Shown here piece after piece: positions 5,657-61,566 of a DNA stretch of 64,000 nucleotides. The stretch comes from Christensenellaceae bacterium. Its GTDB lineage: Bacteria; Bacillota; Clostridia; Christensenellales; UBA1242. Made by a program: the position numbers and the translations under genes. Location: contig JAISHI010000014.1 of the NCBI GenBank assembly GCA_031262595.1, positions 11,276 through 75,275 of the forward strand. The letters are read 5' to 3'. Every line of letters begins with the position of its first letter. The first letter of the stretch is position 1. The notes under the pieces were generated by a model that saw only the letters and a list, made by a program, of their open reading frames with translations, did not search any database and was not told where the DNA came from.

Positions 5657-5730
5657 ACAACTTAATTATAGCGCAAATGGCTCTATGAATACAACAATAA
5701 TTTTTCGCCACGCGGATTGAGAAATTATTA

Positions 5731-6785: not shown

Positions 6786-6815
6786 TTGCAAAAGCGCGGG
6801 GGTTTACTATATAAT
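6786..6815 (+). promoter_or_regulatory. putative valS promoter TTGCAA-18-TATAAT, 8 nt from the ATG (leaderless geometry)
   Basis: TTGCAA at 6786-6791, TATAAT at 6810-6815, ATG at 6824. There is no SD. Confidence 0.45.
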
Positions 6816-6823
6816 AGAGAATT

Positions 6824-10635: not shown

Positions 10636-10682
10636 AATCCCTATAATATCATAATTTTTTTGCGCGAACAATACAAATTATT

Positions 10683-11503: not shown

Positions 11504-12613
11504 TTATAACGAATAATTCTTTATTATTTCGCTTAATATCTCGCAAAAGTTTAGGATTTCCGCCTCCGTATTATATGCGCCGAGGCTAACACGAATCGTT
11601 TTTTTCGCGTCGGCCGCGCTTATCCCCATAGCCGATAAAACGCGGTTTTGCTTTGCGTTCGACGAACAAGCGCTCCCGAGCCCGACGAAAATACCGCGCG
11701 CGGACAACGCGTTTAAAACGGTTGCGCCGAGCAATTTTTCAAACCGCAAACTCGTTATAAATGGGTTGTCGTTGTCGCCGTTGGTTTCGACGCCGCTGGG
11801 CAAGTTCGTTATTAGTGTTTTATGTAATTTAGAAACCTTCGCGCGGAAATCGTTTTGCGCCCATTCGGCGATGGCTTGCCGAAACCCGAAAATTGCCGGA
11901 TTATTTATCGTTCCTGCGCGTAAGTTTTGTTGGTGCCCGCCGAAAATGAGCGGTTTAATCTTTACGCCTTTTTTAATCCAAAGTGCGCCAACCCCTTTCG
12001 GGCCGTTAATTTTATGCGCGGAAATAGTTGCGCTAGAAAACTTTTCGCAATCAAAATCGAACTTCATAAAACCTTGAACAAAATCGAGGTGAAGATGCGT
12101 TTTCGGGTTTTTCGCGCGGATAATTTCCGCCGCGCGATTTAGGTCGACCTTCGTTCCCGTCTCACCATTGCAAAAACTTAAAACAACGAGCCGCGTTTTC
12201 TCGCAAACTTTCTCGGCTAAATCGTTAAGGTCAAGTCCGCCGCCCTTCGTCAACTTAATATATTTAACGATAACTCCGCGCCCCTCGAGTTCGCGCGCAG
12301 GCTCGATAACTGAACTATGGTCGAGGCTTGAAACGACAATCTCGTCGCCCGTTTTATAGTTTAGCCCGAAAAGCACCATATTATTGCTCTCCGTTGCCCC
12401 GCTCGTCCAAACAACTTCGCCCTCCGCGCTCGAAATTATCTTCGCGACCTCCTCGCTAGCCGACAAAACCGCCTTCGCAACCGAAACTCCGCCGGCGTAA
12501 GGCGTTGCGCTGTTAAAATAACCTTGCGCCTCCGCTTTGTTCATCGCCGCCAAAACGCTGTCGAAAGGTTTCGTCGTCGCCGCGTTATCTAAATATATAA
12601 TTTCGTTTCCCAC
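11504..12613 (-). CDS. cysteine desulfurase (class V aminotransferase, NifS/IscS-like)
   Basis: PLP lysine in SAHKINGPKGVGAL and active-site Cys in GLGSACSS. The apparent start codon is GTG. Confidence 0.8.
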   Translation of the reverse strand: MGNEIIYLDNAATTKPFDSVLAAMNKAEAQGYFNSATPYAGGVSVAKAVLSASEEVAKIISSAEGEVVWTSGATESNNMVLFGLNYKTGDEIVVSSLDHSSVIEPARELEGRGVIVKYIKLTKGGGLDLNDLAEKVCEKTRLVVLSFCNGETGTKVDLNRAAEIIRAKNPKTHLHLDFVQGFMKFDFDCEKFSSATISAHKINGPKGVGALWIKKGVKIKPLIFGGHQQNLRAGTINNPAIFGFRQAIAEWAQNDFRAKVSKLHKTLITNLPSGVETNGDNDNPFITSLRFEKLLGATVLNALSARGIFVGLGSACSSNAKQNRVLSAMGISAADAKKTIRVSLGAYNTEAEILNFCEILSEIIKNYSL

Positions 12614-12660
12614 TAACCTATATTATAGCAAATTTATGCGAGTTGCAAGCACGGCAACAG

Positions 12661-16686: not shown

Positions 16687-16702
16687 ACCTTAATTATGCA
16701 CT

Positions 16703-19700: not shown

Positions 19701-19747
19701 CCCTTTTTTGGGCGGTAAGTTTTTGAAACATTTTTTACACTTAACAT
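16739..19747 (-). CDS. fused ABC ATPase / FtsX-type (MacB-like) permease with a ~500-aa extracytoplasmic domain
   Basis: 1002 aa. Walker A GKSGSGKST, signature LSGGQKQR, Walker B ILADEPT. One TM segment is followed by a long hydrophilic domain and then a C-terminal FtsX-like TM bundle. Confidence 0.85.
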   Translation of the reverse strand: MLSVKNVSKTYRPKKGQAVKALQNVSVDFEDRGLVFVLGKSGSGKSTMLNVIGGLDSFDAGEIIIKGKSSKDFSGSDFDAYRNTFLGFIFQEYNILNDFNLEQNIELALQLQGRKRDDAAISKLLADVDLDGLQRRKVNELSGGQKQRIAIARALIKNPEIILADEPTGALDSATGIAIFDTLKELAKDKLVICVSHDREFAEEYGDRIIVMKDGKVLEDVKKTHAAPKNISENVKNVNDKAVLIKRGKEITDAEVKKIAEQIKAADGEVIITIDKKDSAEVRKTLRFDKDGNSEAFSPVKNTDLKIKEYNGRDLKLIKSHFSLGKAFKMGASATRKHPIRLIMTVLLASVSLVLFGVSATIGGYNRHQSMYDSITQAGNPTMFLTSDYNYKFAQSNGIEESSNGYGNSLHAFTEKEYENLKKLNPNIKMLPIIAQPNPSGYEAFTNNVFQFAKSINDYNAAYYMATKPNGKVVATDENKADFGLTLLAGEFPDTDAEVAITDYQYDMFTIVGYKIVDSNGMEGEKTQPDDITSASVMVGKTLRINGKIYTISGVVNTGYKTSDYKQLRDYATGEAKSDGNGGMADYMLQNAIRVMQQGSLSNALFFTQAGADTVPVESSYSNYYCMNINGSSAHLDESYVVKTLPVDDADTITYRTGESQASASGVVLGASGFSGALNIAGITSYWSSQNVYCPSQYNYQTSSYEYDSLIFFGEEYEFSDYDASTLAAELNEQLQEWFDEIDKVRIYPQSYNGSYNKLPEIKVIGITLDVNKIAELAYTTPSFVNSYGNQNSGAWYLPSEAAFNALTPAEAEKGTINSIAVKLTGDKKTDIAFLKSIIVPNPETAYYAGLKNQFSSIFDEFNGMIDELAKIFMYIAIAFAVFAALMMMNFIASSIVYKRREIGILRALGAKKSDVFSIFFSEALIICMINFVIAIVGTFTAVFFINKGTKAALGMPIQLLSFGFLQIIMVFGLALLVAWLGSLLPVWKIARKKPIDAINNR

Positions 19748-19797
19748 AAAGCGATTATATTATGCAGTTAAACATTTTTCAACAACTTTATATTGCC

Positions 19798-23565: not shown

Positions 23566-23645
23566 ACTATATATATAGAAACAAAAATCGAGAAAAGCAA
23601 ACAAATCCTTTGCGTTTTCTAAAAAAATTCCGCATAATAGGTTAT

Positions 23646-24371
23646 ATGGCAATCGCAGTTTTCGCCGACATTCATGGAAACCTCGAAGCGCTCCAAGCAA
23701 TCCTTAAAAGCATAAAGCGCAAAGGCATAAAACAGGTTTATTTTTTGGGCGATGCGATAACTTTCGGGCCGGATTCGTTGGAATGTTTGAAATTGCTCGC
23801 GAAAAGCGGCGTCCGTTGCATAATCGGGAACCATGAACAACGAATGCTCCGCTACGATAAATCCGTCGCCGAGATGAGTTTTGAGGGCACGAAACATATG
23901 GAGGATATTAGGGCGAGCCTAGATAATGAGGCGCTTGCGTTTATAAAATCGCTGCCGCTCGAAATTAAAACCGAATATAAAGGCTATAAAATCGCGTTCA
24001 CGCATTACAGCCACGATAAAAGCGGCGTTGTCCGCGACGATTACGAGGAATTTAGCGAACCGAAACTCATTAAACTTTTCGATTATTTAGGGAGCGATAT
24101 CGTTTTTTTCGGGCATATCCACCACCGCAAAATTATCATCGACGCCTCAAATAAAAGTTTTATGTGCTTGGGGTCGAGCGGTTGCGTTCATGGCGATAAA
24201 ACTTTTTGGACGTATTTCGATATTAAAAAATCGCCGGATAGCGACGCGAACCTTGATTTTCGGCGCATAATGTGCAAATTCAACCGCAAAAAATTCGAAA
24301 AAAAAGTTAAAGAAAGTGAACTCGCGAATAACGAAAAGTTCGCGAAAAAATTCTTTAACGTCGATATTTAA
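23646..24371 (+). CDS. calcineurin-like metallophosphoesterase
   Basis: The start is taken at MAIAVFADIHGN. Contains the DIHGN, GDAITFGP, GNHE and GHIH motifs. Confidence 0.8.
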   Translation: MAIAVFADIHGNLEALQAILKSIKRKGIKQVYFLGDAITFGPDSLECLKLLAKSGVRCIIGNHEQRMLRYDKSVAEMSFEGTKHMEDIRASLDNEALAFIKSLPLEIKTEYKGYKIAFTHYSHDKSGVVRDDYEEFSEPKLIKLFDYLGSDIVFFGHIHHRKIIIDASNKSFMCLGSSGCVHGDKTFWTYFDIKKSPDSDANLDFRRIMCKFNRKKFEKKVKESELANNEKFAKKFFNVDI

Positions 24372-24916: not shown

Positions 24917-27139
24917 TTACCCGAAAAACGTTTCGATTTTATTTTTCGCGACGATGAGGAGGTCGGCGAGCATACTATAACGCTTGCTTGTATAGGTATT
25001 TGCAACCATTTTTTGGACGTTCTCGCGGCTGCCGACGAGCATAACGAGTTTTTTCGCGCGGGTTACTGCGGTATAGAGTAAGTTCCGCGTTAAAATCATG
25101 TATGCCCCGGTCGTTATCGGGATAACGACCGCGTCGAACTCGCAGCCTTGGCTTTTATGAACCGTTATCGCGTAAGAGAGCGTTATGTTTTGGAGCCCGC
25201 CGCTTTCATAAACCGCGACGCGCCCGTCCTCAAACTCGATTTCGACCTCGCCATTATGGCGGTTTATCTCGGTTATTCGCCCGATGTCGCCGTTAAAAAC
25301 GCCTGAGCCCTCCTCGCCGTCGCGCGTCCAATCCTGATTATAGTCGTTATGGATTTGCATAACGCGGTCGCCCTCGCGGAAAGTCGTTTCGCCAACTTTC
25401 CGTTCTTTTTTGCCGTTTTCGCTAGGGTTAAGCGCGGCTTGCAACTCGATATTGAGGTTATTAACTCCCGCGAGTCCAGTTTTCATAGGCGAGAGGACTT
25501 GGATTTGCGAAGTTTCGGTTTTTAGGAATTTCGGCAAGCGATTTAAAACAAGCGAAACGATTTTTTCCTTAATTTCACTCGGGTTCTCGGCCGTTTCAAA
25601 AAAAAAGTCATCGCTAATATTTGAAATATCCGGCATCTCGCCCTTATTTATTAAATGCGCGTTGACGACGATTTTGCTTTTTTCGCTTTGGCGATAAATC
25701 TCGGTTAGGCGCACTACCGGGCAAACGCCGCTCGAAATTATGTCGCAAAGAACATTCCCCGCGCCGACGCTTGGTAATTGGTCGACATCGCCGACAAAAA
25801 CAACGCTGGTTCCTTGCATAATCCGCGCTAAAAGTTGCGCGACTAAAACGACATCGCACATCGACGTTTCATCGACGATAATAACGTCCTCGCGCAAAAA
25901 TTTCTCGGCGGCGTCTCCGCTCCGCCCGTTAAAGTCGCGCCCGAAAGCGTCTATGCCGAGCGCGCGGTGGATTGTGCTGGCCCGCTCGCCCGTCGCGTCC
26001 TCCATTCGTTTGGCGGCGCGGCCAGTCGGGGCTAATAACCGAACGGTTTTCTTCTCGGCCTTGATTATATGGAGTATTGCTTTAATGATTGTCGTTTTGC
26101 CCGTTCCCGGCCCGCCAGTTATAACGGAAAAACCGTTTTTTATCGCGGAGGAAACGGCGTCTTTTTGTTTTTCATGCAATTTTATTTTCGAAATCTCTTG
26201 GTATTCCGCGATTAAGTCGTCGTAATTGTCGCCCTCGCGCTCGGGGTCGGCTTGGTTTAAAATCGCAATCTTATCCGCAATCCGTTTCTCGGCATTAAAA
26301 TAATAAGAAAGCGCAACGCCCTCATCGCCGCTGGCTCTGCTCACCCAAACGAGATATTTATCGAGGCAAAGCTCATTTATAACGCCGCGAAAAACCGGCA
26401 TGAGCTCCTCGGTTTTTATTTTCAAAAGAATAAGCGTTTTTTTAAAGAGTTTTTCGAGGGGTAAATAAGTATGCCCGTCGCCGTCGCAAGCAACTTTTAG
26501 CGCATAAATTATGCCTGCGCGAACGCGAAAGTTCCCAGAATAGGCTATCCCGAGTTGCATCGCGATTTTATCGGCGGTTAGAAAGCCGATGCCGTCGATT
26601 GTTTCGATAAGGTTGTAAGGGTTGACTTGGATTTGTTTTATCGTTTCGCCCTTATAAAAATTAAAAATTTTTATCGACATATTAAGCGAGATTTCAAATT
26701 TTTGTAAAAAAAGAATAACCTCTTCCATTATTTGAATCTCGTTATATCGCTCGCCGATAGCCCGCGCCTTTTCGCGAGTTATCCCCTTAACTCGCGCTAG
26801 TTTTTCGGGGTCGTTTTTAATTATTTCGAGCGTTTCGAGCCCAAGCGTTTTAACTATGCGCTCTGCGGTTTTCGCCCGAACACCAGCGATAAGCCCACTC
26901 CCTAAAAAGGCTTTAGTTTGCGCTAAGGTTGAAGGCAAGACGATACTCGCCGAGGAAACAACGAATTGCTCGCCATACTTCGCGTTCTTAACCCAATCGC
27001 CCGTCATTTTAAGGATTTGCCCCTCGCCAAGGACTGCGAAATATCCGGTTGCTGTTCCCGACTTTTTAAGCCGAACAACCGAATATCCGTTCTCTTCGTT
27101 GCGAAAAGTAATCGTTTTAATCTCGTCGATAAGTTCCAT
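24917..27139 (-). CDS. recD2: SF1 helicase RecD2 (RecD-like, YrrC type)
   Basis: 740 aa. Walker A GGPGTGKTT, the VGDVDQLPSVG motif, and the C-terminal SH3-like/2B region typical of RecD2. Confidence 0.9.
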   Translation of the reverse strand: MELIDEIKTITFRNEENGYSVVRLKKSGTATGYFAVLGEGQILKMTGDWVKNAKYGEQFVVSSASIVLPSTLAQTKAFLGSGLIAGVRAKTAERIVKTLGLETLEIIKNDPEKLARVKGITREKARAIGERYNEIQIMEEVILFLQKFEISLNMSIKIFNFYKGETIKQIQVNPYNLIETIDGIGFLTADKIAMQLGIAYSGNFRVRAGIIYALKVACDGDGHTYLPLEKLFKKTLILLKIKTEELMPVFRGVINELCLDKYLVWVSRASGDEGVALSYYFNAEKRIADKIAILNQADPEREGDNYDDLIAEYQEISKIKLHEKQKDAVSSAIKNGFSVITGGPGTGKTTIIKAILHIIKAEKKTVRLLAPTGRAAKRMEDATGERASTIHRALGIDAFGRDFNGRSGDAAEKFLREDVIIVDETSMCDVVLVAQLLARIMQGTSVVFVGDVDQLPSVGAGNVLCDIISSGVCPVVRLTEIYRQSEKSKIVVNAHLINKGEMPDISNISDDFFFETAENPSEIKEKIVSLVLNRLPKFLKTETSQIQVLSPMKTGLAGVNNLNIELQAALNPSENGKKERKVGETTFREGDRVMQIHNDYNQDWTRDGEEGSGVFNGDIGRITEINRHNGEVEIEFEDGRVAVYESGGLQNITLSYAITVHKSQGCEFDAVVIPITTGAYMILTRNLLYTAVTRAKKLVMLVGSRENVQKMVANTYTSKRYSMLADLLIVAKNKIETFFG

Positions 27140-27147
27140 TACGAAAG

Positions 27148-27176
27148 ATTATATCATGCCGCGCTATAATAGCCAA
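27148..27176 (-). promoter_or_regulatory. putative recD2 promoter TTGGCT-17-TGaTATAAT, 8 nt from the ATG
   Basis: -35 at 27171-27176 and -10 at 27148-27153. The extended TG overlaps the TGA stop of the giant ORF. There is no SD. Confidence 0.4.
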
Positions 27177-37695: not shown

Positions 37696-37820
37696 CTTTA
37701 AATTCTTTTAACTCCCTAATAACCTATTATATGCAAAACCGAAAAGTCAAGGCTTTTATAGGCAAAATCAACGCAAGTTTTGTATTGACGAAAATACGTC
37801 TCGCAAGGTATCCTTATTAT

Positions 37821-39026
37821 ATGAACATCAACACGCTTTCCCCTTCCGCGAAACTCATTCGCAATTTCGTTATGGGCGAAAACCAACCGCAAATTTTAGT
37901 TTTAGTTTGTGGAGAGAACCTCGAAGAAACTAAAAAGCATGCTCTCGAAGGCATCGTTTCGGCTGGCGGAAGTTATCGCGTTATGGCTATCCCAGAGTTT
38001 AGCGAACTCGACAAAATCTCGCCCCTAACTGCGAATTATGCGAAAACCTATATGGCGGATATTTCTAAATTTATCGATAACTTACTCGAACAAAAACTCT
38101 ATGACGGCGTTTTAATTATCTCGAATAACCTTATCGGGGCGGTAGCGGCTATAAATTCTTGCGTTAATAAAAATATCCCGACAACAGTTCTTTCAGGCGG
38201 TTATGAAAGCGATACGTTAGAGCGGTTCTTGTCGTCGGTTGGCGCGGAAACTTGCGGAAAAATTACGAGCGCCGCTTTAAAAGAATTAACGCTAACGACG
38301 CAAAAATCAAATTCGTTCACCGAAAAAGGAATCGCGAATTCGCTAATTTATTTTCTCGAAAATCTCGGGCTCGCAGTTAAGGATGCCTCTAAATCGCCCG
38401 CAAATAGCCCTAAACAGCGTTTGGTCGCTTTTGAGGCTGGAAAGCAAGTCGCAAAGACCGCCAAAAATCAAGACGCGATAGTTAAACTTATAACGAAAGA
38501 AAACGTCGTTTCGGCGGCTAGCAAAATGGCGAAAAATGGATTTAACCTCTTCGCGCTGACATACTTAAATTTTGTCGATTTTAAAAAAGTTATTGCGCCG
38601 TTAATTAAAGAAAAAAACAGCCAAATTAAAACCGTTAGCGGAGTTTGCGACGCATTTATCCAAACTTCGGGCGCGACTTCAACCGTTTTCTCGGGCTCGG
38701 TTTGGGCATATGAGGATTTAACTAGCGCGGACGTTGGGCTAGCTAGCGGCGCGGTTGACGGCGGCGTTTTAGTTATAAAAAACTCGGCGGGCGTTGACGT
38801 TAGCCAAATCCAAAACGTTATTAAAGGTTTCGGGATTGCGGAAAAGTTTTTCGTTTTAACTAGCGGCGTCGCAGAAGTTAACGAGGTTGCTACGCTTTGC
38901 ATGGCTAGCGAGGATATCGACCTATTCGAAACCGGCGACGTTATCGAGATTGACCTAAATAAAGGCAAAATCTCGTCTAGCATTTCGGCGCGCGACTTAA
39001 AATTAAGGGCAAAACGCAAGCGATAA
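37821..39026 (+). CDS. IlvD/Edd (dihydroxy-acid dehydratase)-like protein lacking the catalytic motifs
   Basis: By eye, colinear with IlvD at both ends (QILVLVCGENLEE...AGG...DGVLIISNNLIGAVAAINSCVNKNIPTTVLSGG; C-terminus ETGDVIEIDLNKGKISSSISARDLKLRAKR). CDK is replaced by SNN and there is no DG(I/V)AMG. About 400 aa against about 560 for IlvD. The start at 37821 is uncertain. Confidence 0.45.
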   Translation: MNINTLSPSAKLIRNFVMGENQPQILVLVCGENLEETKKHALEGIVSAGGSYRVMAIPEFSELDKISPLTANYAKTYMADISKFIDNLLEQKLYDGVLIISNNLIGAVAAINSCVNKNIPTTVLSGGYESDTLERFLSSVGAETCGKITSAALKELTLTTQKSNSFTEKGIANSLIYFLENLGLAVKDASKSPANSPKQRLVAFEAGKQVAKTAKNQDAIVKLITKENVVSAASKMAKNGFNLFALTYLNFVDFKKVIAPLIKEKNSQIKTVSGVCDAFIQTSGATSTVFSGSVWAYEDLTSADVGLASGAVDGGVLVIKNSAGVDVSQIQNVIKGFGIAEKFFVLTSGVAEVNEVATLCMASEDIDLFETGDVIEIDLNKGKISSSISARDLKLRAKRKR

Positions 39027-39027
39027 A

Positions 39028-42201: not shown

Positions 42202-42264
42202 GGCGCAACTTCCTATAAATAAAAAGTTTTGATTATTTTGATTTTTATTATATAGTAAGGCGAT

Positions 42265-43125
42265 ATGGAATTTATACGGTTTAATAACTTAAAAAGTTAT
42301 CGCGATGCGGTTATCGCGGATTTAAGTAAGAATGAAATTCGAAACTCATCCGAAATTCAAAAGATAAGTACTTGGAGCGAACAAGAATTCGTTGATGCAA
42401 ACGGCTTGTTTGCGGTCGTCAAAGATAATGGCAAAAACGCCGCGATAATCTTTCATGCACCGCCAAAAGAATTTAATTTGTATTTTATAGACAATAAATT
42501 TAATAGCACCGTAGCAGAATTTTTAATAAAAAGTTTAGTCGAGTTAAATTGGAAAGTTGAAATCGTTTGGGCTGACAGCGAAACCGGCTTAAATTTCGCT
42601 AAAGAATATGCGAGAATTACAAACCAAAGATACGAGCAAGAGGAAACTTGGTTTGCCTATAAATTAGGAAAATTACAAAACGTTAAAAAATCTGACGGCA
42701 AAATTCGGATCGCAACAAAAAACGACAGCTATTTTATTCCATATTGGTGGCGAGAGTTTGGGGCAGAAAGTGGAGTGGGAACAGGCGATGAATTAGATAT
42801 AAATAATCGTATAAATAAATTTCTTAAATTAAAGCACGACATTGTTCTATTTATCGATAGTGACGACATTCCCGTCTCAATGGTCGGGTGGAAAAGAATT
42901 AGCGAAACGTTATGCCGTATCGGACCCGTTTATACGCCGCCGCAATTTAGGCGTTCGGGTTATGCGACGACGGCGGTTTGTTTACTTTGCGAACAATTAC
43001 AAACGAAATATAAAGATATAATGCTTTTGGCGGACGCGGATTATCCCGCAAGCAATGCTTGTTATCAAAAAATCGGTTTTGAAAGATTATTCTCAATGAT
43101 GCAATATAAGATTGGGCAATCTTAA
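42265..43125 (+). CDS. GNAT-family N-acetyltransferase with an uncharacterised N-terminal half
   Basis: The C-terminal half has the acetyl-CoA motif PPQFRRSGYATTAV and ...CYQKIGFERL. Confidence 0.7.
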   Translation: MEFIRFNNLKSYRDAVIADLSKNEIRNSSEIQKISTWSEQEFVDANGLFAVVKDNGKNAAIIFHAPPKEFNLYFIDNKFNSTVAEFLIKSLVELNWKVEIVWADSETGLNFAKEYARITNQRYEQEETWFAYKLGKLQNVKKSDGKIRIATKNDSYFIPYWWREFGAESGVGTGDELDINNRINKFLKLKHDIVLFIDSDDIPVSMVGWKRISETLCRIGPVYTPPQFRRSGYATTAVCLLCEQLQTKYKDIMLLADADYPASNACYQKIGFERLFSMMQYKIGQS

Positions 43126-43660: not shown

Positions 43661-44386
43661 CTACTCCCCGAACTCGCCGTTATGGAAAACGTTTTGAACG
43701 TCGTCGTGTTCTTCGAGGGTATCGATTAGTTTTTCGAACGCTTTTCGTTTTTCTTCGGGAACGTTTATATATGAAGACGGAACTTGCTCTACGCCCGAAC
43801 CTACGACTTTAATTTTCGCGTTTTCGAGAGTTTGCAGAACCTCAGTTATGTCCTCAGGCTTCGTCGAAACCTCAAAAACGTCCTCCTCGTCGGTTATGTC
43901 TAAAACAGGGCTTTCGATTAGCGTTTCGAAAAGTTGCTCCTCGGTTATGCCTTCCTTATCAATACTGGCGATGCCCTTGCGCTCGAAAAGATAGGAAACC
44001 GAGCCCGAAACGCCGAGCGAGCCGCCGGATTTATCGAACGCACTGCGAACGTCGCCCGCGGTGCGGTTTTTATTATCCGTTAAAGTTTCGACGATAAATG
44101 CGATTCCTGCCGGCCCGTAGCCCTCGTAAACAATGCTTTCATAATTCGCCGACGAACTGTCCGTCGTCGCCTTTTTTATCGCGCGAGAAACGTTATCGTT
44201 CGGCATATTATGCGACCGCGCCTTCGCGATAACCTCACGCAATTTGCTGTTGCCGTTTGGGTCGCCGCCGCCCATTTTCGCCGCAACATAAATTTCCTTC
44301 GCGAGTTTTGCGAAAAGGTTGCCTATTTGGGCGTCGCGCTCGCCTTTCGCGCGCTTAATTTTACTCCATTTATTATGTCCACTCAT
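43661..44386 (-). CDS. yebC: YebC/PmpR family transcriptional regulator
   Basis: 241 aa. MSGHNKWSKIKRAKG... with the canonical YebC N-terminus and length. Confidence 0.92.
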   Translation of the reverse strand: MSGHNKWSKIKRAKGERDAQIGNLFAKLAKEIYVAAKMGGGDPNGNSKLREVIAKARSHNMPNDNVSRAIKKATTDSSSANYESIVYEGYGPAGIAFIVETLTDNKNRTAGDVRSAFDKSGGSLGVSGSVSYLFERKGIASIDKEGITEEQLFETLIESPVLDITDEEDVFEVSTKPEDITEVLQTLENAKIKVVGSGVEQVPSSYINVPEEKRKAFEKLIDTLEEHDDVQNVFHNGEFGE

Positions 44387-44407
44387 ACGGCTAGGATACT
44401 CTTATCT

Positions 44408-45133
44408 TTATCGGTTGTCAAACTCGTTAAGCGCCTTCATTATGATTCCGGCGGCGACAGCAACGTTTAGGCTCTCGGCGAAGTCGTTCATTTTTATCGT
44501 GAAGGTTTTATGCGGAAGGGTTTTTAGTTCGGGCGAGATGCCTTGCCCTTCGTTTCCTAATATAAGCCCGAAGTTCGGGTCGTTTAGCGCGAACTCTTCG
44601 CCGTTTAAATCGGCTAAGATAAGTTTTTCGCCGAACGCGCCGCTTTTAAATTCGGCGATAAACTCGTTATAAGTTTTTTCTATAATATTTATAAATAACG
44701 ACAGCCCCGCCGAAGCGCGGATTGCCTTCGCCGAAAACGCGTCCGCCGAGTTTATTGAAATAACTGACTTAAACCCGAACGCAACCGCGCTACGAATAAT
44801 CGCGCCGACGTTCGCGGGCTCTTGGATATTATCTAAAACCAAATACGGAAAAGTTATCACGCCCGAATTCGGGATTTTCGCGACAGCGAGAACGCCTTTC
44901 GGGGTTTTAAATTCCGTTATTTCGTCGAAAAGTTTGTTCGATAAAACTTCGTTCGGCTCTATTTCGCCGCGATAATCCTCGCTCGCGAAAACGCCCGCCG
45001 CGAACCCTTTATTAACGCACTCGCGAACGAGTTTCTCGCCCTCAACGATACAAAGCCCCGACTTATCGCGCGCCTTTTTCATTTTAAGCGAATTTAATAA
45101 CTTAACTTTTTCGTTCTCACGCGAGGTAATCAT
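44408..45133 (-). CDS. SpoU/TrmH-family RNA 2'-O-methyltransferase (RlmB-like)
   Basis: Has the LDNIQEPANVGAIIRSAVAFG motif and the C-terminal SLNVAVAAGI knot motif. Confidence 0.8.
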   Translation of the reverse strand: MITSRENEKVKLLNSLKMKKARDKSGLCIVEGEKLVRECVNKGFAAGVFASEDYRGEIEPNEVLSNKLFDEITEFKTPKGVLAVAKIPNSGVITFPYLVLDNIQEPANVGAIIRSAVAFGFKSVISINSADAFSAKAIRASAGLSLFINIIEKTYNEFIAEFKSGAFGEKLILADLNGEEFALNDPNFGLILGNEGQGISPELKTLPHKTFTIKMNDFAESLNVAVAAGIIMKALNEFDNR

Positions 45134-47360
45134 ATTTAACCCTCCCCTCGCTCATCTCCGCGGTTATCTCGCGAACGCCTTGGTTCGATATAATAATTTC
45201 GGCGACTTTGTCCTCGACTTCTTTTTGGATAACGCGTTTAATAGGGCGCGCACCGAATTCTGGGTCATAGCCTTTCTCGACGATAAAATCAACGAGGTCA
45301 TCGTTATACTTAAACTCGACGCCTTTCCCCGAGAGCATTTTAACGAATTTTTCGAGTTGTAATGCGGCGATTTTCTTAACGTTTTCTTTCGAGAGCGAAT
45401 TAAAGACGATAATATTATCGATGCGGTTTAGGAACTCGGGTTTGAAATGCTTTTTCATGCCCGCGAGTATACTTTCCTCTTCGACCATAAGCGACCTATC
45501 CTCGCCGAACCCAATCGCCGTCGTTTTCTTAATCTCGCTAACGCCAACATTACTCGTCATAACGATAATCGCGTTTCTAAAACTCGTTTTTTTGCCGTGG
45601 CTGTCGGTTAGATGCCCCTCGTCGAGAATTTGCAACAAAAGGTTATAAACGTCGGCGTGCGCCTTCTCGATTTCGTCGAAAAGAACGATACAATAAGGGT
45701 TCTTCCTAACCTTTTCGCAAAGAACGCTCGCATCGTCATAGCCGACATACCCCGCCGGCGAGCCGATGAGTTTCGAAACGCTGTGCGATTCTTGGAACTC
45801 GCTCATGTCGAGTTTAATAAGCGACTTCTCGCTACTAAAAACCGTTCGCGCAAGGACTTTACAAACCTCAGTTTTCCCGACGCCGGTTCGCCCTAGGAAA
45901 AAGAAACTACCTATCGGTCGGTTCGTGTCACCGACGCCAGCCCGCGCGCGCCTAATCGCGCTCGCAATCGCATCGCAAGCCTTATCTTGTCCGATTATAC
46001 TCTTTTTAAGTTCGTCGGCGAGGTTGTTTAGACTCTCGCTCTCATCCTTCGAGATTTTCGAAACAGGAATTTTCGTTATACAAGAAACGACTTCGGCAAT
46101 ATCGTCGCTCGTTATCGCGGCGCGCTCGCCCCCAGCTCGGATTTTGGCTTTACTGCAAGCCTCATCGAGGACGTCGATTGCCTTATCGGGTAAATTCCTA
46201 TCATTTATATAACGGTCACTAAGGCTAACCGCCGCAACAATCGCATCGTATCCAATCTCGACTTTATGGAAACTTTCGAACCCCTCTTTAAGCCCAGCGA
46301 GAATCTCAATCGCTTGCTCCGTTGACGGCGGATTAACAATAATCGGCGCGAAACGGCGTTCTAACGCAGGGTCTTTTTCAATATATTTGCGGTATTCTTC
46401 AAGCGTCGTCGCGCCAACGGTTTGGAGGTCGCCGCGCGCGAGTTTCGGTTTTAAAATTTCGCCGATACCCATGCCGTTTTCCTTGTCGCCTGTCGCGGTC
46501 GCGATTGTGTGGAGTTCGTCGATAAATAAAATTATATCCTTTCGCTCCTCGCAAAGTTTTAATAACCCTTGAAGGCGGTTTTCGAGTTCGCCGCGATATT
46601 TCGTTCCCGCCATAAGGCTTCCAATATCAAGCGAAAAAATGATTTTATTTCTAAGAATTTCCGGAACGTCGCCGCTAATAATTCGCAGCGCAAGCCCCTC
46701 GACAATCGCACTCTTACCGACGCCAGCCTCGCCGATTAGAACGGGGTTGTTCTTAGTTTTTCGGCAAAGGATTTCGATCATTCTTTGCGTCTCGTCGTCG
46801 CGCCCGATGATATTATCAATCTTCCCTTGTCGCGCCTTTTCCGTTAAATCTATTCCTAAATTCAAAACGCTCTCTGGCAGTTTTTTTTCGTCGTTTTCGC
46901 GCGGATTTACGGAGGCACCCCCCTCAAATTCCGCGTTATTTGCGCTGTACGGCGTTTTCACCTCTTCTTTAAAGTTTTCTAGTCCGAGCGCAGCCAGCGA
47001 TTTACGCGATACGGCGTCGGCTAAACCCGAACGAATTTCGTTTAAAATAAATTTCGTTTGCGCTATTTTTTCCGCCAAAACGAATAACAAAACTTCGCTA
47101 ACAATCGCGCTGAGCCCGAACGCTTCTGTATATTTTTGCGCGGTTAATAAAACGTCGCTATAACCCTCGCCAGTTTCCGAAACGGAGCGGATTTCGGCAA
47201 TCGCGTTCGCCGAAACGCCTAGCGATTTTAGAATTTGTCCGGCGACGCAACCTTCATTTTTCGCGCAAGCAAAAAGCAAATGATAAGGGCGAACCTCGTT
47301 GTCGACCGTATACTGCCCTGCAATCCCAATAATCTTAATAACATTTTTCGTTAACTTCAT
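45117..47360 (-). CDS. clpC: Clp/Hsp100 ATPase, ClpC-like N-domain but no M-domain (ClpA-like architecture)
   Basis: 747 aa. Clp_N repeats, D1 Walker A GEAGVGKSAIVEGLA, D2 GRTGVGKTEVCKVLA. D1 runs straight into ...AKIRAGGERAAITSDDIAEVVSCITKIPVSK with no coiled-coil/UVR insert. Confidence 0.8.
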   Translation of the reverse strand: MKLTKNVIKIIGIAGQYTVDNEVRPYHLLFACAKNEGCVAGQILKSLGVSANAIAEIRSVSETGEGYSDVLLTAQKYTEAFGLSAIVSEVLLFVLAEKIAQTKFILNEIRSGLADAVSRKSLAALGLENFKEEVKTPYSANNAEFEGGASVNPRENDEKKLPESVLNLGIDLTEKARQGKIDNIIGRDDETQRMIEILCRKTKNNPVLIGEAGVGKSAIVEGLALRIISGDVPEILRNKIIFSLDIGSLMAGTKYRGELENRLQGLLKLCEERKDIILFIDELHTIATATGDKENGMGIGEILKPKLARGDLQTVGATTLEEYRKYIEKDPALERRFAPIIVNPPSTEQAIEILAGLKEGFESFHKVEIGYDAIVAAVSLSDRYINDRNLPDKAIDVLDEACSKAKIRAGGERAAITSDDIAEVVSCITKIPVSKISKDESESLNNLADELKKSIIGQDKACDAIASAIRRARAGVGDTNRPIGSFFFLGRTGVGKTEVCKVLARTVFSSEKSLIKLDMSEFQESHSVSKLIGSPAGYVGYDDASVLCEKVRKNPYCIVLFDEIEKAHADVYNLLLQILDEGHLTDSHGKKTSFRNAIIVMTSNVGVSEIKKTTAIGFGEDRSLMVEEESILAGMKKHFKPEFLNRIDNIIVFNSLSKENVKKIAALQLEKFVKMLSGKGVEFKYNDDLVDFIVEKGYDPEFGARPIKRVIQKEVEDKVAEIIISNQGVREITAEMSEGRVKYDYLA

Positions 47361-47366
47361 AAACTT

Positions 47367-47396
47367 ATTATAAAACTAGGGAGAACAAAAAAGCAA
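47367..47396 (-). promoter_or_regulatory. putative clpC promoter TTGCTT-18-TATAAT, 6 nt from the ATG
   Basis: -35 at 47391-47396, -10 at 47367-47372, ATG at 47360. There is no SD. Confidence 0.45.
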
Positions 47397-47397
47397 T

Positions 47398-47426
47398 TTG
47401 ATTTTAACCAAGCACCTCGTTATAAT
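47398..47426 (+). promoter_or_regulatory. putative mcsA promoter TTGATT-17-TATAAT, 6 nt from the ATG
   Basis: -35 at 47398-47403, -10 at 47421-47426, ATG at 47433. There is no SD. It sits back-to-back with the clpC -35. Confidence 0.5.
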
Positions 47427-47432
47427 AAAATT

Positions 47433-47762
47433 ATGCTTTGCGAGATTTGTGGTCAAAATATTGCGTCGCTTATACGCGGCGATTCTTTCGGAAATGAAAT
47501 TCGCGTTTGTATGCGTTGTTTAGATAAGCCGATTTTCTCGAAAGCGGATTTATTAGCCGACCTTATCGCGAACGATTTCGATATTTTTAGCGCGCCGATG
47601 ACGCCGCTAACTCCAAAACCTAAGGTTTGCCCTTGTTGCGGATATTCTTTCGAGGATTTTAGGGAGTTCGGCGAATTGGGTTGCAGCGAATGTTATAAGG
47701 CGTTCGCGGCGGAGTTAGCGCCCGTTATCGCGCGGCTTAAAAAGGCGGTTTATGATGAATAA
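47433..47762 (+). CDS. mcsA: McsA-like zinc-finger protein (activator of protein arginine kinase)
   Basis: 109 aa. CEICGQ...CMRC and CPCCGYSFEDFREFGELGCSECYKAF, as in McsA. Overlaps mcsB. Confidence 0.7.
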   Translation: MLCEICGQNIASLIRGDSFGNEIRVCMRCLDKPIFSKADLLADLIANDFDIFSAPMTPLTPKPKVCPCCGYSFEDFREFGELGCSECYKAFAAELAPVIARLKKAVYDE

Positions 47763-49622: not shown

Positions 49623-49753
49623 AAAAAACTCACCATTACGATGAGTTTATTTTTAAAGAAATAACGCTCATCGTTAGCCATTCGCACCTTACTTTTCAGC
49701 AGGTTGCGGCGTGGTCATCGGGGCTAATCCCTCGCACGCTCTTTATGATAGTC
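49623..49753 (-). promoter_or_regulatory. SAM-I (S-box) riboswitch with terminator expression platform
   Basis: The minus strand reads ...AUCAUAAAGAGCGUGCGAGGGAUUAGCCCCGAUGACCACGCCGCAACCUGCUGAAAAGUAAGGUGCGAAUGGCUAACGAUGAG..., matching the S-box core (AGAG, GAGGGA, CCCGAUGA K-turn, GCAACC, GGUGC-AAU). The terminator is ACUCAUC-GUAAU-GGUGAGU plus U6. The antiterminator pairs ACGAUGAG with CUCAUCGU. Confidence 0.8.
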
Positions 49754-54773: not shown

Positions 54774-54806
54774 AATGCAATATCGTGTTCGGTATTGCAT
54801 TTTTTG
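54774..54806 (+). terminator. intrinsic terminator after fusA
   Basis: AATGCAATA-tcgtgttcgg-TATTGCATT followed by TTTTT. Confidence 0.7.
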
Positions 54807-54828
54807 TTGGGTTTTGTTAGTATCTTAT

Positions 54829-55083
54829 ATGAACGAATTAGAACAAAAACTAGCAGAATTTAAAAAAGAACTTCGAGAAAAAACAGCGCAACTTGAAGCG
54901 CTTGAACAAGAACGAGAGCGTGGAGCTCCCGCAGGAATACAATCTGAATACGCAAAAAAACTCACGAAACTACGCGGCGAAAAAAACTCGTTGTCGTTAA
55001 GGATTGAATTGATAAAATCTGAAATTGTGGCGGCGAAACAAGCCGATAAAGCTTACGAGGAAGATGCCGATATCACTAAATAA
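54829..55083 (+). CDS. hypothetical coiled-coil protein (84 aa)
   Basis: The start is taken at MNELEQKLAEFKKELREK. The sequence is heptad-rich. The longer ORF in the track overlaps fusA and the terminator. Confidence 0.45.
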   Translation: MNELEQKLAEFKKELREKTAQLEALEQERERGAPAGIQSEYAKKLTKLRGEKNSLSLRIELIKSEIVAAKQADKAYEEDADITK

Positions 55084-55125
55084 CTTTAACTTGCCTATCC
55101 CCTTTTATTAGTCTATTTTTGTCTT

Positions 55126-55359
55126 GTGAGAAGTAAGCCTTACGAAATTGATTTGCATGGCCTAACGCGCGAGGACGCGGAGTTTAACCTGCGTCTTTTT
55201 TTCGAAAATATTCCGCCAAGCGTTCGCCAAGTTTACGTTATCCATGGCATCGGCGGAGGCGTTTTAAAGAAACTTTGCGCCGAGTTTTGGCACGAGAGAA
55301 TTATAGAGCGCGCGGTTTGCGTTTCGAACCCCGGTCAAACGGTTTATTATTTAAATTAA
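55126..55359 (+). CDS. Smr-domain protein (77 aa)
   Basis: IDLHGLTREDAEFNL...VIHGIGGGVLK matches the Smr pattern. The start codon is GTG. Confidence 0.6.
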   Translation: MRSKPYEIDLHGLTREDAEFNLRLFFENIPPSVRQVYVIHGIGGGVLKKLCAEFWHERIIERAVCVSNPGQTVYYLN

Positions 55360-60186: not shown

Positions 60187-61509
60187 TTATAAACGATAAA
60201 TGTAGGTATAGAGATAACAATAAATGGTCGTGTCCTCGTAAATTGGTATTTCTAAATACATCCCTTGTCCAAGTATCTCATCATTTGCATCTTTCCAATA
60301 AACTCGCCCGAACTGTGATTCATACGCTTCCGCCTCCGCCAATGTTTCATAACCGAAAATCGTTCTGCCAACATCTACTCTATGCTTTCCTTTTTCATGG
60401 TTATCCGTTACAACCGTTTTAACATGATCGCCATTGATATAACATATAATCGTTAAAATAATACCCTCCGGTTCTGGGTCTATTGGGTCTGTTGGGCCTA
60501 CTGGGTCTGTGGGTTCGGTCGGTTCTGTCGGCTCTGTTGGTTCTGTGGGTTCGGTCGGCTCTTCGTAAATAAACCAATGCGCATAAATCGCAATCGTATC
60601 GCGACTCGCCGAAACTAAATTATAGTTAATAATATCGCGCGGGCTTTTAATTTCGAAGCCTTCGCCATAAGGTTTTGTATACCAGCCAAGGAGTTCAACG
60701 TTTTCGTTTCCTGGAACTCGCGCCGAGATTGTGTTTGGGGTTAGAACGCCGTCTGTCGTGAACGCCCAATCAAGGTTCGAGCCTTGCCCGTCATGTGCGC
60801 GGAATGTGCGCGAACCGTTGTTGCCGACTATTTCTGCGCCGACAACGCCGTGGGTTATATCGAATTTAACGATAAAGTTATAGTTTTCGTAGTCGCTGTT
60901 CGTAATCCAATAACCCCAAAGGTTAAGGTCAGAAGTATATAAGAAAACGTCGCCCGACGAAATCATTTCGCCTTGCCCGTTAGGCTGAGTATACCAACCA
61001 ACAAACTCCCAACCAAAAACGGTATTATAAGCATAATCTGGGAGAATTCCGATAGGTTCAAGATATTTAATCTCTATCGAAGTTGGATTCGCAACGCCCG
61101 CCATATGCGAGTTGAAATTTATGTGATAAGTAATAGGCGCCCAATCAGCGGTTAAAATACTCGCGTCGTCAACTTTCGTTAAGTTCGCTGGAACATATTT
61201 ATCGAGTTTTGTGCCGTCTTGCCAAACCCAACCATCGAAAGAATATCCCTTATTTTCGAACGGATTTTCAATAAGTTTCGTTTTCTTTGCCTTTGTCTCG
61301 CCTTCGGGGTTGTCTTTCGTTTCATAAAGCGGAACTGTTTGGTTTTTAGTTGGCTCTGCGCCTAACGATGCCGCGTATTGTAAATTTATCTCACCAACTT
61401 TCTTTGGAAAAATCCCGCTCAAATCAATATCGCTTAAAAGAAGCCCGATTACAGCAAAAAGCACCACCGAAACTATGATACAAGTTGTTATAAATTTCTT
61501 CAATTTCAT
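60187..61509 (-). CDS. membrane-anchored surface protein with Listeria-Bacteroides (Flg_new) repeats and a PTE-repeat linker
   Basis: N-terminal TM segment and repeated ...F.GW(Y/V).. units (YSFDGWVWQDG, WEFVGWYTQPNG, ELLGWYTKPYG). The linker is EEPTEPTEPTEPTEPTEPTDPVGPTDPIDPEPE. Confidence 0.7.
   Translation of the reverse strand: MKLKKFITTCIIVSVVLFAVIGLLLSDIDLSGIFPKKVGEINLQYAASLGAEPTKNQTVPLYETKDNPEGETKAKKTKLIENPFENKGYSFDGWVWQDGTKLDKYVPANLTKVDDASILTADWAPITYHINFNSHMAGVANPTSIEIKYLEPIGILPDYAYNTVFGWEFVGWYTQPNGQGEMISSGDVFLYTSDLNLWGYWITNSDYENYNFIVKFDITHGVVGAEIVGNNGSRTFRAHDGQGSNLDWAFTTDGVLTPNTISARVPGNENVELLGWYTKPYGEGFEIKSPRDIINYNLVSASRDTIAIYAHWFIYEEPTEPTEPTEPTEPTEPTDPVGPTDPIDPEPEGIILTIICYINGDHVKTVVTDNHEKGKHRVDVGRTIFGYETLAEAEAYESQFGRVYWKDANDEILGQGMYLEIPIYEDTTIYCYLYTYIYRL
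60468..60562. repeat. imperfect 9-bp tandem repeat encoding the (PTE)n linker
   Basis: Plus-strand units such as ggttctgtc / ggctctgtt / ggttctgtg / ggttcggtc repeat about ten times with degeneracy. Confidence 0.75.
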
Positions 61510-61566
61510 GACGTAAGGATATCATATGAATCTAAAAAAGTCAATACCCTCGCCAAAATTTTAATA

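Follow-up and report, generated by a model that had tools for sequence, protein, structure and literature searches.

Between about a third and a half of the operon-leading genes in this genome and in related ones appear to carry a complete housekeeping promoter 5-8 nt before the start codon. Judged by sequence, this start-proximal layout seems to be a heritable trait of a whole clade of uncultured, sporulating Clostridia, and not a quirk of the window, as the 64,000-nucleotide stretch analysed here is called. The best explanation is very probably that the genes concerned are expressed from leaderless mRNAs, or from mRNAs with a leader of at most 2 nt, that are translated from a 5'-terminal AUG. 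An original prediction, made from the window itself, had listed 12 start-proximal -10 sites and read them in this way. All of its hexamers, distances and coordinates were reproduced, and most of its table is sound, the exceptions being polA, which is weak, and frr and the IlvD-like gene, whose starts are ambiguous. Full promoters, the lack of Shine-Dalgarno (SD) sequences, a bias towards operon-leading genes and starts backed by family models all lend support to the leaderless reading.

The host has a low to medium GC content (~45%) and a coding density of 95%. Genes for SipL, SpoIIIAA, YunB and Veg were found by family-model searches, and their presence points to a sporulating member of the Clostridia.

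Promoter anatomy next to start codons

The 72-nt spacer between the divergent clpC and mcsA genes illustrates the arrangement (Table 1). The -35 hexamers of the two promoters lie back to back, separated by 1 nt, and direct reading of the sequence between -10 element and ATG reveals no SD at clpC and none at mcsA. The order of the corresponding operon in Bacillus subtilis is ctsR-mcsA-mcsB-clpC. As in B. subtilis, mcsA, mcsB and clpC are clustered here, but clpC is divergent from mcsA-mcsB, the cluster contains no ctsR gene, there is no leader, and the spacer (47361-47432) has no match with up to 3 mismatches to the CtsR operator, a tandem of RGTCAAA heptads.

Table 1. Start-proximal promoters in the window, with one leadered contrast case. 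Elements are given as -35 hexamer, spacer length and -10 hexamer, with extended TG where present; the gap is counted from the -10 hexamer to the start codon; "additional" marks sites absent from the original prediction.
Gene	Coordinates	Strand	Elements	Gap (nt)	Start	p	Remarks
clpC	47358..47396	-	TTGCTT (47391-47396)-18-TATAAT (47367-47372)	6	ATG 47358-47360	0.0019	ClpA model aligns from residue 24 to model position 25
mcsA	47398..47435	+	TTGATT (47398-47403)-17-TATAAT (47421-47426)	6	ATG 47433	0.0001	
secA	5654..5694	-	TTGTAT-18-TATAAT (5665-5670)	8	ATG 5656	0.0015	SecA model aligns from residue 3
valS	6786..6826	+	TTGCAA-18-TATAAT (6810-6815)	8	ATG 6824	0.0007	TIGR00422 aligns 1 to 1
recD2	27137..27176	-	TTGGCT-17-TGaTATAAT (27148-27153)	8	ATG 27139	<0.0001	best score; RecD2 model aligns from residue 7
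rsmD	2369..2388	+	TGtTAAAAT (2372-2377)	8	ATG 2386	0.005	one codon upstream, then stop
M16-family peptidase	10633..10671	-	TTGTTC-17-TGaTATTAT	7	ATG 10635	0.0016	additional
cysteine desulfurase	12611..12630	-	TGcTATAAT (12622-12627)	8	GTG 12613	0.003	NifS model aligns from residue 6
fused ABC transporter	19745..19782	-	TTGAAA-17-TATAAT	6	ATG 19747	0.0001	LolD model aligns 1 to 1; additional
metallophosphoesterase	23610..23648	+	TTGCGT-17-CATAAT (23633-23638)	7	ATG 23646	0.010	ApaH model aligns 1 to 1
IlvD-like	37785..37823	+	TTGACG-18-TATCCT (37809-37814)	6	ATG 37821	0.0015	start ambiguous versus ATG 37731
GNAT	42229..42267	+	TTGATT-16-TATAGT (42251-42256)	8	ATG 42265	0.0027	
yebC	44384..44421	-	TTGACA-17-TATCCT (44393-44398)	6	ATG 44386	0.0004	YebC model aligns 1 to 1; additional
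Flg_new-repeat protein	61507..61544	-	TTGACT-17-TATCCT	6	ATG 61509	0.0004	additional
84-aa coiled-coil ORF	54795..54831	+	TTGCAT-17-TAGTAT	5	ATG 54829		read from sequence; additional
77-aa ORF, Smr-domain-like by eye	55091..55128	+	TTGCCT-17-TATTTT	6	GTG 55126		read from sequence; additional
polA (weak candidate)	16684..16698	-	CATAAT (16693-16698)	6	ATG 16686	0.056	no -35 or TG; 5'-3' exonuclease model aligns 1 to 1
frr (weak, ambiguous candidate)	1248..1285	-	TTGCCA-18-TGaTATATA	5	ATG 1250	0.0175	
metK-like (contrast case)	49665..49751	-			ATG 49595		SAM riboswitch leader and AAGGAG SD ahead of the gene

Enrichment of -10 motifs near starts over background had been named in the original prediction as a check to be made, and it was found in the window by two routes. 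A scan that used no annotation looked for TAnnnT with five or more of the six positions as in TATAAT, followed by N(d) and then by an ATG opening an ORF of at least 80 aa; it gave 11 matches at d=5-8, with 2.8 expected from the distance bins d=12-40 (Poisson P=1.4e-4). A PWM for the full promoter, set at 4-9 nt before the start codon and giving an empirical p per gene, was applied to 50 genes curated by the analyst, and 13 of these reached p<0.01, where 0.5 were expected; both this gene list and the computational gene calls of the relatives are predictions. By count per distance bin, enrichment of strong promoters at d=4-9 is 4.7-fold in the window and 0.65-fold in 21 typical Bacillota loci (window versus these, Fisher OR 7.2, P=5e-9).

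The motifs that accompany the hexamers are those of promoters. Among 69 start-proximal -10 matches in the window and five relatives, a TTG occurs at spacer 17 in 23, at 16 in 4 and at 18 in 4, with none at spacers 13-15, and the consensus of the -35 column is TTGACA; an extended TG is found in 30% of start-proximal matches versus 6% of control matches. Because a -35 TTG at a 17-nt spacer and an extended TG go with them, the hexamers are best read as promoters and not as ribosome-binding sites, that is, as -10 elements of true sigma-A promoters, in line with the original description of a -35 or extended TG beside most of the -10s. An independent consensus promoter scan also picks up the mcsA, yebC, IlvD-like and GNAT sites. 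The -10 TATCCT was considered as the mark of an alternative sigma factor, but the three promoters that share it are alike in their hexamers only and have consensus -35s, and they were read as sigma-A promoters with a weak -10.

Several promoters extend into their neighbors: the -35 and TG of recD2 fall within the 3' end of the giant ORF, the -35 of yebC within the upstream SpoU-methylase ORF, and the -35 of the 84-aa coiled-coil ORF in the fusA terminator stem. Weaker cases, likewise absent from the original prediction, are der, aqpZ, veg, an APH-like gene and surE2. The alr gene, divergent from rsmD, has CATATT at 7 nt from its ATG at 2357 (p=0.17), and the frr -10, TATATA, lacks the final T.

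The gap between -10 and start is bimodal in the window, with 6 and 8 nt preferred; about half (five) of the strongest cases have the 8-nt gap, and some 8-nt-gap genes have a purine at position 7 or 8 (secA g, rsmD a, GNAT a, recD2 a). The distance from -10 to transcription start is general knowledge for sigma-70 promoters, and from it we infer the positions of +1 and, with them, how ribosomes engage these messages. At a 6-nt gap RNA polymerase would start on the A of the start codon, and at an 8-nt gap at most 1-2 nt ahead of it. The resulting mRNAs would have neither a 5' untranslated region nor an SD, and at the first gene the ribosome would attach straight to the AUG (in rare cases GUG) at the 5' end, the mode described for leaderless mRNAs of Actinobacteria, Deinococcus and archaea, while downstream operon genes and a minority of leading genes would use canonical AAGGAGG-type SD initiation, so that both modes would coexist. 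Additional promoters may lie further upstream, within neighboring genes.

Operon position, Shine-Dalgarno use and start assignment

Leaderless-type promoters are associated with the heads of operons. In the window they precede 13 of 36 leading genes at p<0.01, with 4 more at p<0.05, and 2 of 15 short-gap genes; the corresponding counts in the relatives are 22 of 76 leading genes (12 more at the laxer threshold) and 1 of 26 short-gap genes. Altogether 29-37% of all window genes are affected. None of the 13 top PWM genes has an SD core of at least 5 nt at 3-13 nt from the start, in line with the original observation that SDs are missing from the listed genes; 12 of the 13 start with ATG and one with GTG.

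The proposal that two initiation modes are used side by side also held. SDs of the AAGGAG/GGAGG type are found at most internal genes and at fusA, rnj, the metK-like gene, the lipoprotein gene and the giant ORF. The SAM riboswitch and SD ahead of the metK-like gene show that, next to the leaderless type, there are genes with a leader that depend on an SD. Of the 36 leading genes, 12 have no SD and no good start-proximal promoter either, which suggests that initiation also takes another route or that other sigma factors take part; the internal ttcA-like, spoIIIAE, spoIIIAD and spoIIIAF genes likewise have neither. In the window, divergent pairs are just 28 (rsmD/alr), 36 and 72 nt apart, and in two relatives (L088 and L090) the gap is 43 nt, which leaves no space for leaders between the genes.

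Family models (NCBIfam, Pfam) back the starts of secA, valS, recD2, polA, the metallophosphoesterase, clpC, mcsA and the cysteine desulfurase, as well as those of the ABC transporter, yebC, aqpZ, veg and alr. In these 13 genes full-length models align 0-7 residues from the proposed N-terminus, the next in-frame start codons lie 26-44 codons downstream, and an upstream stop within 1-5 codons blocks extension for most. Re-annotation, by which the original prediction could have been overturned, found no SD-preceded in-frame start downstream of the model-backed ones.

Relatives, control taxa and known systems

Relatives were defined by ClpC identity of 52-62% or McsB identity of at least 41% to this genome. 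A GTDB scan with ClpC gave matches of which those listed all have at most 49% identity, and these served as negative and positive controls. The pooled relatives have 28 start-proximal matches versus 10.2 expected, with the -10 gap peaking sharply at 6 nt, and a replication in 21 further relatives gave 48 versus 12 expected (P=4e-15). In typical Bacillota, at equally or more AT-rich loci, the ratio is 0.6-0.7 fold, a depletion, and clpC has a GGAGG SD. The positive control was Actinomycetota, for which TANNNT was used since the strict TATAAT scan of these high-GC genomes gave 0 matches; the -10 peak is again at 6 nt. Many members of the clade come out of the same few metagenome series. Searches for exact copies of the window proteins McsB, FusA and ClpC gave no match, and metagenome contigs did not contain an exact 38-mer of the mcsA promoter.

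Orthologous clpC/mcsA spacers are too diverged for alignment, and gene order differs (it is altered in L082, L084 and L086), so geometry was compared instead. The -10 sits 6-7 nt ahead of clpC in five relative lineages and 5-7 nt ahead of mcsA in 15 of 15 relatives, among which are several visibly different promoter sequences.

The arrangement appears to add a new taxon to an architecture already described, the "group C" of GeneMarkS-2, which is recognized by a Pribnow box lying 6-8 nt before the start codon (PMC6028130). The same survey assigned 36 Firmicutes to group C, and its leaderless-rich class comprises just 3.4% of Firmicutes (PMC6028130), while maps of transcription starts in C. difficile contain 6-15 leaderless mRNAs (PMC8237595, PMC7438776). 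These figures agree with the original judgement that the trait is unusual for spore-forming Bacillota, and a literature search for leaderless genes in Christensenellales-like Clostridia yielded no relevant report. As in the group C species Mycobacterium tuberculosis and D. deserti, the genes with the motif have no SD, while internal genes and part of the leading genes retain one, the motif precedes a third to half of operon leaders, and the gap peaks at 6 nt. Unlike those species, the host belongs to the low/medium-GC, endospore-forming Clostridia, the gap is bimodal in the window, and the architecture is predicted from sequence; the -10 is a complete TATAAT, frequently preceded by an extended TG and accompanied by a clear -35 of TTGACA, and not the minimal TANNNT of high-GC group C. 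Within the same phylum, Lactococcus/Streptococcus, Oenococcus/Leuconostoc and Mycoplasma have a TAtAAT-type signal with a frequent TG just upstream (PMC3160421), but these are non-sporulating Bacilli and Mollicutes, not Clostridia, and leaderless genes make up 4.2% on average and at most 16.6% in Firmicutes (Zheng et al. 2011, PMC3160421), well below the share of window genes affected here. In the Bacteroidetes-like group B the motif precedes all genes, whereas here almost none is found at internal genes, which carry SDs.

Alternative explanations and meaning

That the hexamers are chance TATAAT-like matches in AT-rich intergenic DNA, picked because they fit, is an explanation that can be considered effectively refuted. 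The weak cases of polA and alr do fit it, and promoter-like matches in 37-57 kb exceed shuffles by a modest margin (36 versus 27 +/- 4.9), but the scans were annotation-free with distance bins as control, the count of genes at p<0.01 far exceeds the 0.5 expected, the -35 co-occurs at exactly 17 nt, Bacillota loci of equal or greater AT content are depleted, and the signal was replicated in the 21 further relatives. Very improbable, too, is a general mis-assignment of start codons, with real starts up- or downstream preceded by SDs and the promoters thus ordinary leadered ones. A few genes do have two candidate starts: 1250 and 1217 for frr, where the RRF model fits either, 37821 and 37731 for the IlvD-like gene, 10635 and TTG 10671 for the M16 peptidase, and 21885 and 21876 for der. 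For the model-backed genes, alignments that reach the N-terminus, the remoteness of the next in-frame starts, which are without SDs, and the stops just upstream all speak against it.

Two further readings are unlikely, though less remote than these. One holds that the TA-rich element acts in translation as a non-SD signal, an A/U-rich, unstructured enhancer or S1 site in the style of group B, on leadered mRNAs that come from promoters further upstream; the leading and internal genes that have neither SD nor promoter do imply that leadered or coupled RNA is sometimes initiated without an SD. Against it, group B motifs also precede internal genes (PMC6028130), where almost none occur here, the accompanying TTGACA -35, 17 nt away, and the extended TG play no part in translation, and divergent gaps of 28-72 nt are too small for separate promoters outside the neighboring coding sequences. 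The other, given about the same small chance, accepts the promoters as real but posits 1-5 nt leaders or mixed starts, with translation inefficient or conditional, for instance under stress or in sporulation. The 8-nt gap of five of the strongest cases, in some of which position 7 or 8 is a purine, and the possibility of secondary upstream promoters favor this reading, while the presence of core housekeeping genes lacking an alternative SD (secA, valS, polA, clpC, der, frr, yebC), the 6-nt peak in relatives, which is the canonical spacing for +1 on the A, and the same peak in Actinomycetota, whose main route is known to be leaderless translation, argue for leaderless initiation instead.

On a broader view, we lean slightly towards the idea that most transcription units became leaderless, independently and at a Deinococcus-like frequency, throughout a lineage of uncultured endospore-forming Clostridia at the rank of family or order. 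The converted genes would include some that are leader-controlled in other Firmicutes, such as valS (T-box) and clpC (CtsR), and an Rfam search found no T-box leader at valS. If true, this would amount to a lineage-wide loss of leader-based regulation, possibly with adapted ribosomes or initiation factors. An mRNA that has no 5' untranslated region cannot accommodate T-boxes, riboswitches, sRNA sites or RNA thermometers. Ahead of spoIIIAA and yunB, CATATAAAT hints at start-proximal sporulation-sigma promoters; should such promoters also be start-proximal, the leaderless layout would extend to the developmental program. There are practical consequences as well: gene finders trained on SDs misplace starts in leaderless-rich genomes, automated annotations of this group of metagenome-assembled genomes deserve checking, and compact promoter/start modules become available, among them the bidirectional clpC/mcsA unit of 43-72 nt. 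The trait has hitherto been seen as typical of Actinobacteria, Deinococcus-Thermus and archaea, and a clade of sporulating Clostridia, sharply bounded against neighboring Clostridia, would offer an independent case for asking why initiation modes switch, with genome compaction, given the high coding density, as one candidate cause.

Promoters close before the start codon

Twelve first-in-operon genes were listed in the original prediction as carrying a -10 hexamer just before the start codon, with leaderless mRNAs as the proposed outcome, and direct reading reproduced the hexamers, gaps and coordinates of all twelve. So that fitting starts would not be hand-picked, both strands were scanned without annotation for TAnnnT hexamers (at least 5/6 vs TATAAT) followed, after a gap of d nucleotides, by an ATG near the 5' end of an ORF 80 aa or longer. 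Against a background of ~0.7 matches per distance bin (d=12-40), there were 5 matches at d=6, 1 at d=7 and 5 at d=8; the total for d=5-8 is 11, versus 2.8 expected (P=1.4e-4). Each of 50 curated starts was also given a composite score for promoter elements (-35, 16-18 nt spacer, optional TG, -10) placed 4-9 nt ahead of it, with the score at every window position as background. Thirteen of the 50 genes reached an empirical p<0.01, against 0.5 expected: rsmD, secA, valS, an M16 peptidase, cysteine desulfurase, a fused ABC transporter, recD2, an IlvD-like gene, GNAT, yebC, clpC, mcsA and a Flg_new-repeat protein. Next, at p=0.01-0.07, came the metallophosphoesterase gene (p=0.010), frr, der, veg, an APH-like gene, polA, aqpZ and sipL. 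Start-proximal promoters are strong for most of the twelve genes and weaker for polA and frr. An independent consensus promoter scan picked up the mcsA, yebC, IlvD-like and GNAT sites, with a modest excess of promoter-like sites overall (36 vs 27 +/- 4.9 in shuffles); the sites are remarkable for their placement, not for their number. Complete promoters before two small ORFs were spotted by eye.

The start codons were examined as well. Full-length NCBIfam/Pfam models align 0-7 residues from the proposed N-terminus for 13 genes (secA, valS, recD2, polA, the metallophosphoesterase gene, clpC, mcsA, cysteine desulfurase with its GTG, the ABC transporter, yebC, aqpZ, veg and alr) and so back most proposed starts, and for most genes upstream extension is stopped within 1-5 codons. 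No Shine-Dalgarno sequence (SD) precedes the next in-frame starts, 26-44 codons downstream. Starts are ambiguous for frr (1250/1217) and the IlvD-like gene (37821/37731), both among the twelve, and for the M16 peptidase (10635/TTG 10671) and der (21885/21876). Elsewhere, the longest-ORF start of the second of two tandem SurE-family paralogues, TTG 23700, is probably wrong, because Pfam supports ATG 23565. A longest-ORF call at 39858-40271 overlaps a tRNA-Gly gene (anticodon TCC); that protein probably begins at ATG 40181, where a GGAGGTG SD lies 5 nt upstream.

Features of the window with their coordinates (d, nt between the -10 hexamer and the start codon)
Feature	Position	Strand	Description
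clpC promoter	-10 47367-47372; -35 47391-47396; ATG 47360	-	TTGCTT-18-TATAAT, d=6; direct read
mcsA promoter	-10 47421-47426; -35 47398-47403; ATG 47433	+	TTGATT-17-TATAAT, d=6; direct read
Small-ORF promoter	-35 54795-54800; ATG 54829	+	TTGCAT-17-TAGTAT-5-ATG
Small-ORF promoter	GTG 55126	+	TTGCCT-17-TATTTT-6-GTG
IlvD-like -10	37809-37814	+	TATCCT, -35 TTGACG
yebC -10	44393-44398	-	TATCCT, -35 TTGACA
Flg_new protein -10	61516-61521	-	TATCCT, -35 TTGACT
SurE-family paralogues	21941-22711; 22711-23565	-	1-nt overlap; ATG 23565 preceded by TTGCTT-17-TATATA-6
tRNA-Gly	40212-40285	-	
Promoter near tRNA-Gly	40367-40339		TTGACT-17-TAAAAT; consensus scan
fusA terminator hairpin	54771-54804	+	15 bp; region 54771-54831
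Giant ORF	27154-36177	-	3007 aa
SAM riboswitch	49665-49751	-	Rfam, 51.7 bits (gathering score 44.4)
metK-like gene	48741-49751	-	span of riboswitch plus gene; 284-aa product
valS upstream gap	6784-6823		40 nt
spoIIIA-like operon	55415-60115		spoIIIAA apparently first
CATATAAAT, copy 1	60120-60128	-	4 nt ahead of spoIIIAA ATG (60115)
CATATAAAT, copy 2	13271-13279	-	overlaps yunB ATG (13272); 4 nt before in-frame GTG (13266)

Promoter identity, operon position and Shine-Dalgarno sequences

Alignment on the -10 of 69 start-proximal matches from the window and five relatives gave a -35 column consensus of TTGACA. The TTG lies at a spacer of exactly 17 nt in 23 sites, with four sites each at 16 and 18 nt and none of the 69 at 13-15 nt; a TGn extension is present in 30%, compared with 6% of the -10-like hexamers found further out, at d=12-40. 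Since the 17-nt-spaced -35 and the TGn typify sigma-70 / sigma-A promoters and serve no purpose in translation, the elements are identified as such promoters. An unusual TATCCT variant of the -10 is common to three unrelated genes (IlvD-like, yebC and Flg_new), exactly 6 nt from the ATG each time and with a near-perfect -35 partner; the three spacers share no similarity.

Genes were sorted by their upstream neighbour, with leading genes defined as divergent or separated by a same-strand gap of >25 nt. Leaderless-type genes, those with a promoter -10 close before the start codon, made up 13/36 leading genes of the window at p<0.01 (plus 4 at p<0.05) and 22/76 in the relatives (plus 12 at p<0.05), versus 2/15 and 1/26, respectively, of short-gap genes. 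The two window exceptions are recD2 and yebC, whose promoters extend partly into the 3'-terminal part of the preceding ORF. For recD2, the -35 and TG occupy the final codons of the giant ORF, whose product has a hydrophobic segment at its N-terminus, and the -10 adjoins its stop codon. Divergent gaps are as short as 28 nt (alr/rsmD), 36 nt (sipL/veg) and 72 nt (clpC/mcsA), so in these pairs there is no intergenic space for leaders. Coding density is 95%. The TTGCAT of one small-ORF promoter falls inside the fusA terminator hairpin, and the two elements therefore overlap.

An SD core of at least 5 nt at usable spacing is absent from all 13 top genes, as predicted. The predicted coexistence of two initiation modes likewise holds: SDs are plain at internal genes (hyp96, surE1, hyp149 and the SpoU methylase; in ruvC the core, GGAG, has only 4 nt) and at leading genes such as the lipoprotein gene, the giant ORF (GGGGGA-type, read from the sequence), the metK-like gene, rnj, fusA and that for a SLOG protein. 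Four internal genes, ttcA-like (39028), spoIIIAE (58120), spoIIIAD (58507) and spoIIIAF (56950), have neither SD nor promoter; their starts abut or overlap the preceding stop codon (39026-39030; 57026-58507), an arrangement that points to translational coupling or to some other way of initiating without an SD.

The metK-like gene lies behind a SAM riboswitch, and its product, with only a weak match to the S-adenosylmethionine synthetase N-terminal domain, is a short or atypical MetK-like protein. In Firmicutes, valS is commonly under T-box control; Rfam finds no T-box before valS here, and the upstream gap is occupied by the promoter. The window encodes SipL, SpoIIIAA, YunB and Veg, which marks the host as a sporulating member of the Clostridia. 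The 9-mer CATATAAAT has only two exact copies in the window, at spoIIIAA and yunB, which are sigma-E regulon members in B. subtilis. It resembles the -10 (CATAnnnT) of sigma-E/K, so start-proximal placement may extend to sporulation promoters.

Conservation in the clade and comparison with other bacteria

The mcsA-mcsB genes and clpC are transcribed divergently from opposite strands (45117-48744), with -35 hexamers back to back, 1 nt apart. Neither -10-to-ATG gap contains an SD, no ctsR gene lies within the cluster, and a search of the clpC/mcsA spacer for a CtsR operator gave no match. Window ClpC is short (747 aa), and the Clp_N domain is faint or absent in clade homologues. The window protein is at most 49% identical to relatives among the GTDB scan matches listed, and 52-62% identical to ~100 MAG proteins whose source label reads Firmicutes, Clostridia or Christensenellaceae bacterium. 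Five lineages of the latter class were fetched (L082, L084, L086, L088 and L090). All have the same layout at operon-leading genes and AAGGAG at internal genes, and together they give 28 matches versus 10.2 expected, with a peak at 6 nt (P=3e-6). The clpC gap measures 6 nt in four of the lineages and 7 nt in the other; the divergent pair is retained in L088 and L090, with only 43 nt from ATG to ATG and both -10s at 6 nt. The leaderless-type arrangement is seen at obg, mreB and the HhH-GPD glycosylase gene in L082 and L084 alike, whereas sepF has it clearly in L082 but only weakly (GATTTT) in L084.

A metagenome scan with McsB served as independent replication. At McsB identities of 41% or more, 21 loci gave 48 matches versus 12 expected (P=4e-15), again peaking at 6 nt; the 54 loci at 39% or less gave 15 with 21 expected. 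In 15/15 relatives where an mcsA-like ORF was found, a -10-like hexamer, in most cases TGn-extended, lies 5-7 nt before its start, and the promoter sequences sort into several types that visibly differ; the geometry is therefore kept while the sequence turns over. Many of the clade relatives (L092-L110, L140, L164) come from a few JGI metagenome series (Ga0123353, Ga0123355, Ga0123357, Ga0131853, Ga0136643, Ga0209755, JGI24698/24705) and JAEEG*/JAEEMI NCBI records, which suggests a shared habitat.

Forty-eight low-GC loci of other bacteria, mostly typical Bacillota, are depleted at 5-8 nt (38 vs 63 expected), and their matches rise broadly across 20-40 nt, the pattern to be expected of leadered genes. 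By composite score, 21 typical Bacillota loci had 37 matches at d=4-9 versus 485 at d=10-60, compared with 22 versus 40 in the window (Fisher OR 7.2, P=5e-9). The clpC orthologues of 9/9 typical Bacillota, one a Christensenellaceae MAG, have a GGAGG-type SD. In 12 loci of Actinomycetota, known to be leaderless-rich, TANNNT hexamers peak sharply at 6 nt (25 matches), which indicates that the method detects the known signature. A Candidatus Saccharibacteria MAG (L075, CAYTOC010000002.1) is enriched for start-proximal -10 matches (7 vs 4) and has 7 composite matches at d=4-9 versus 19 at d=10-60, which suggests this organisation in that candidate phylum too. For the window and its clade, promoter anatomy, placement, operon-position association, start support and clade conservation are shown by the sequence analysis.

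A leaderless reading and its lineage

Transcription by the sigma-70 holoenzyme begins ~7 nt past the -10 hexamer, preferably at a purine. A 6-nt gap would then place +1 at the A of the ATG, and an 8-nt gap either there or 1-2 nt earlier. We infer that transcription of these genes begins at the AUG or up to 2 nt ahead of it and that the RNAs, devoid of an SD, would depend on the ribosome recognising the 5'-terminal AUG directly, as leaderless mRNAs do elsewhere (reviewed in PMC5397173, PMC6028130). The start-proximal promoters are confirmed, and on sequence grounds their leaderless reading is supported.

The pattern equals the signature of GeneMarkS-2 group C, a Pribnow box 6-8 nt from first-in-operon starts with SDs on the rest, which takes in 90% of Actinobacteria, 97% of Deinococcus-Thermus and only 36/1064 Firmicutes (PMC6028130). 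The literature search found no report of such a layout in Christensenellales-like Clostridia. In an earlier survey, leaderless genes in Firmicutes average 4.2%, with a maximum of 16.6%, mainly in Lactobacillales and Mycoplasma (PMC3160421), and only 6-15 leaderless mRNAs appear in TSS maps of C. difficile (PMC8237595, PMC7438776). In the window, by comparison, the leaderless type makes up 29-37% of the full gene set and 36-47% of operon leaders. The evidence is computational and the principle already established; what is noteworthy for specialists is the frequency and the sharp clade boundary of a known gene organisation found in an unexpected, coherent lineage.
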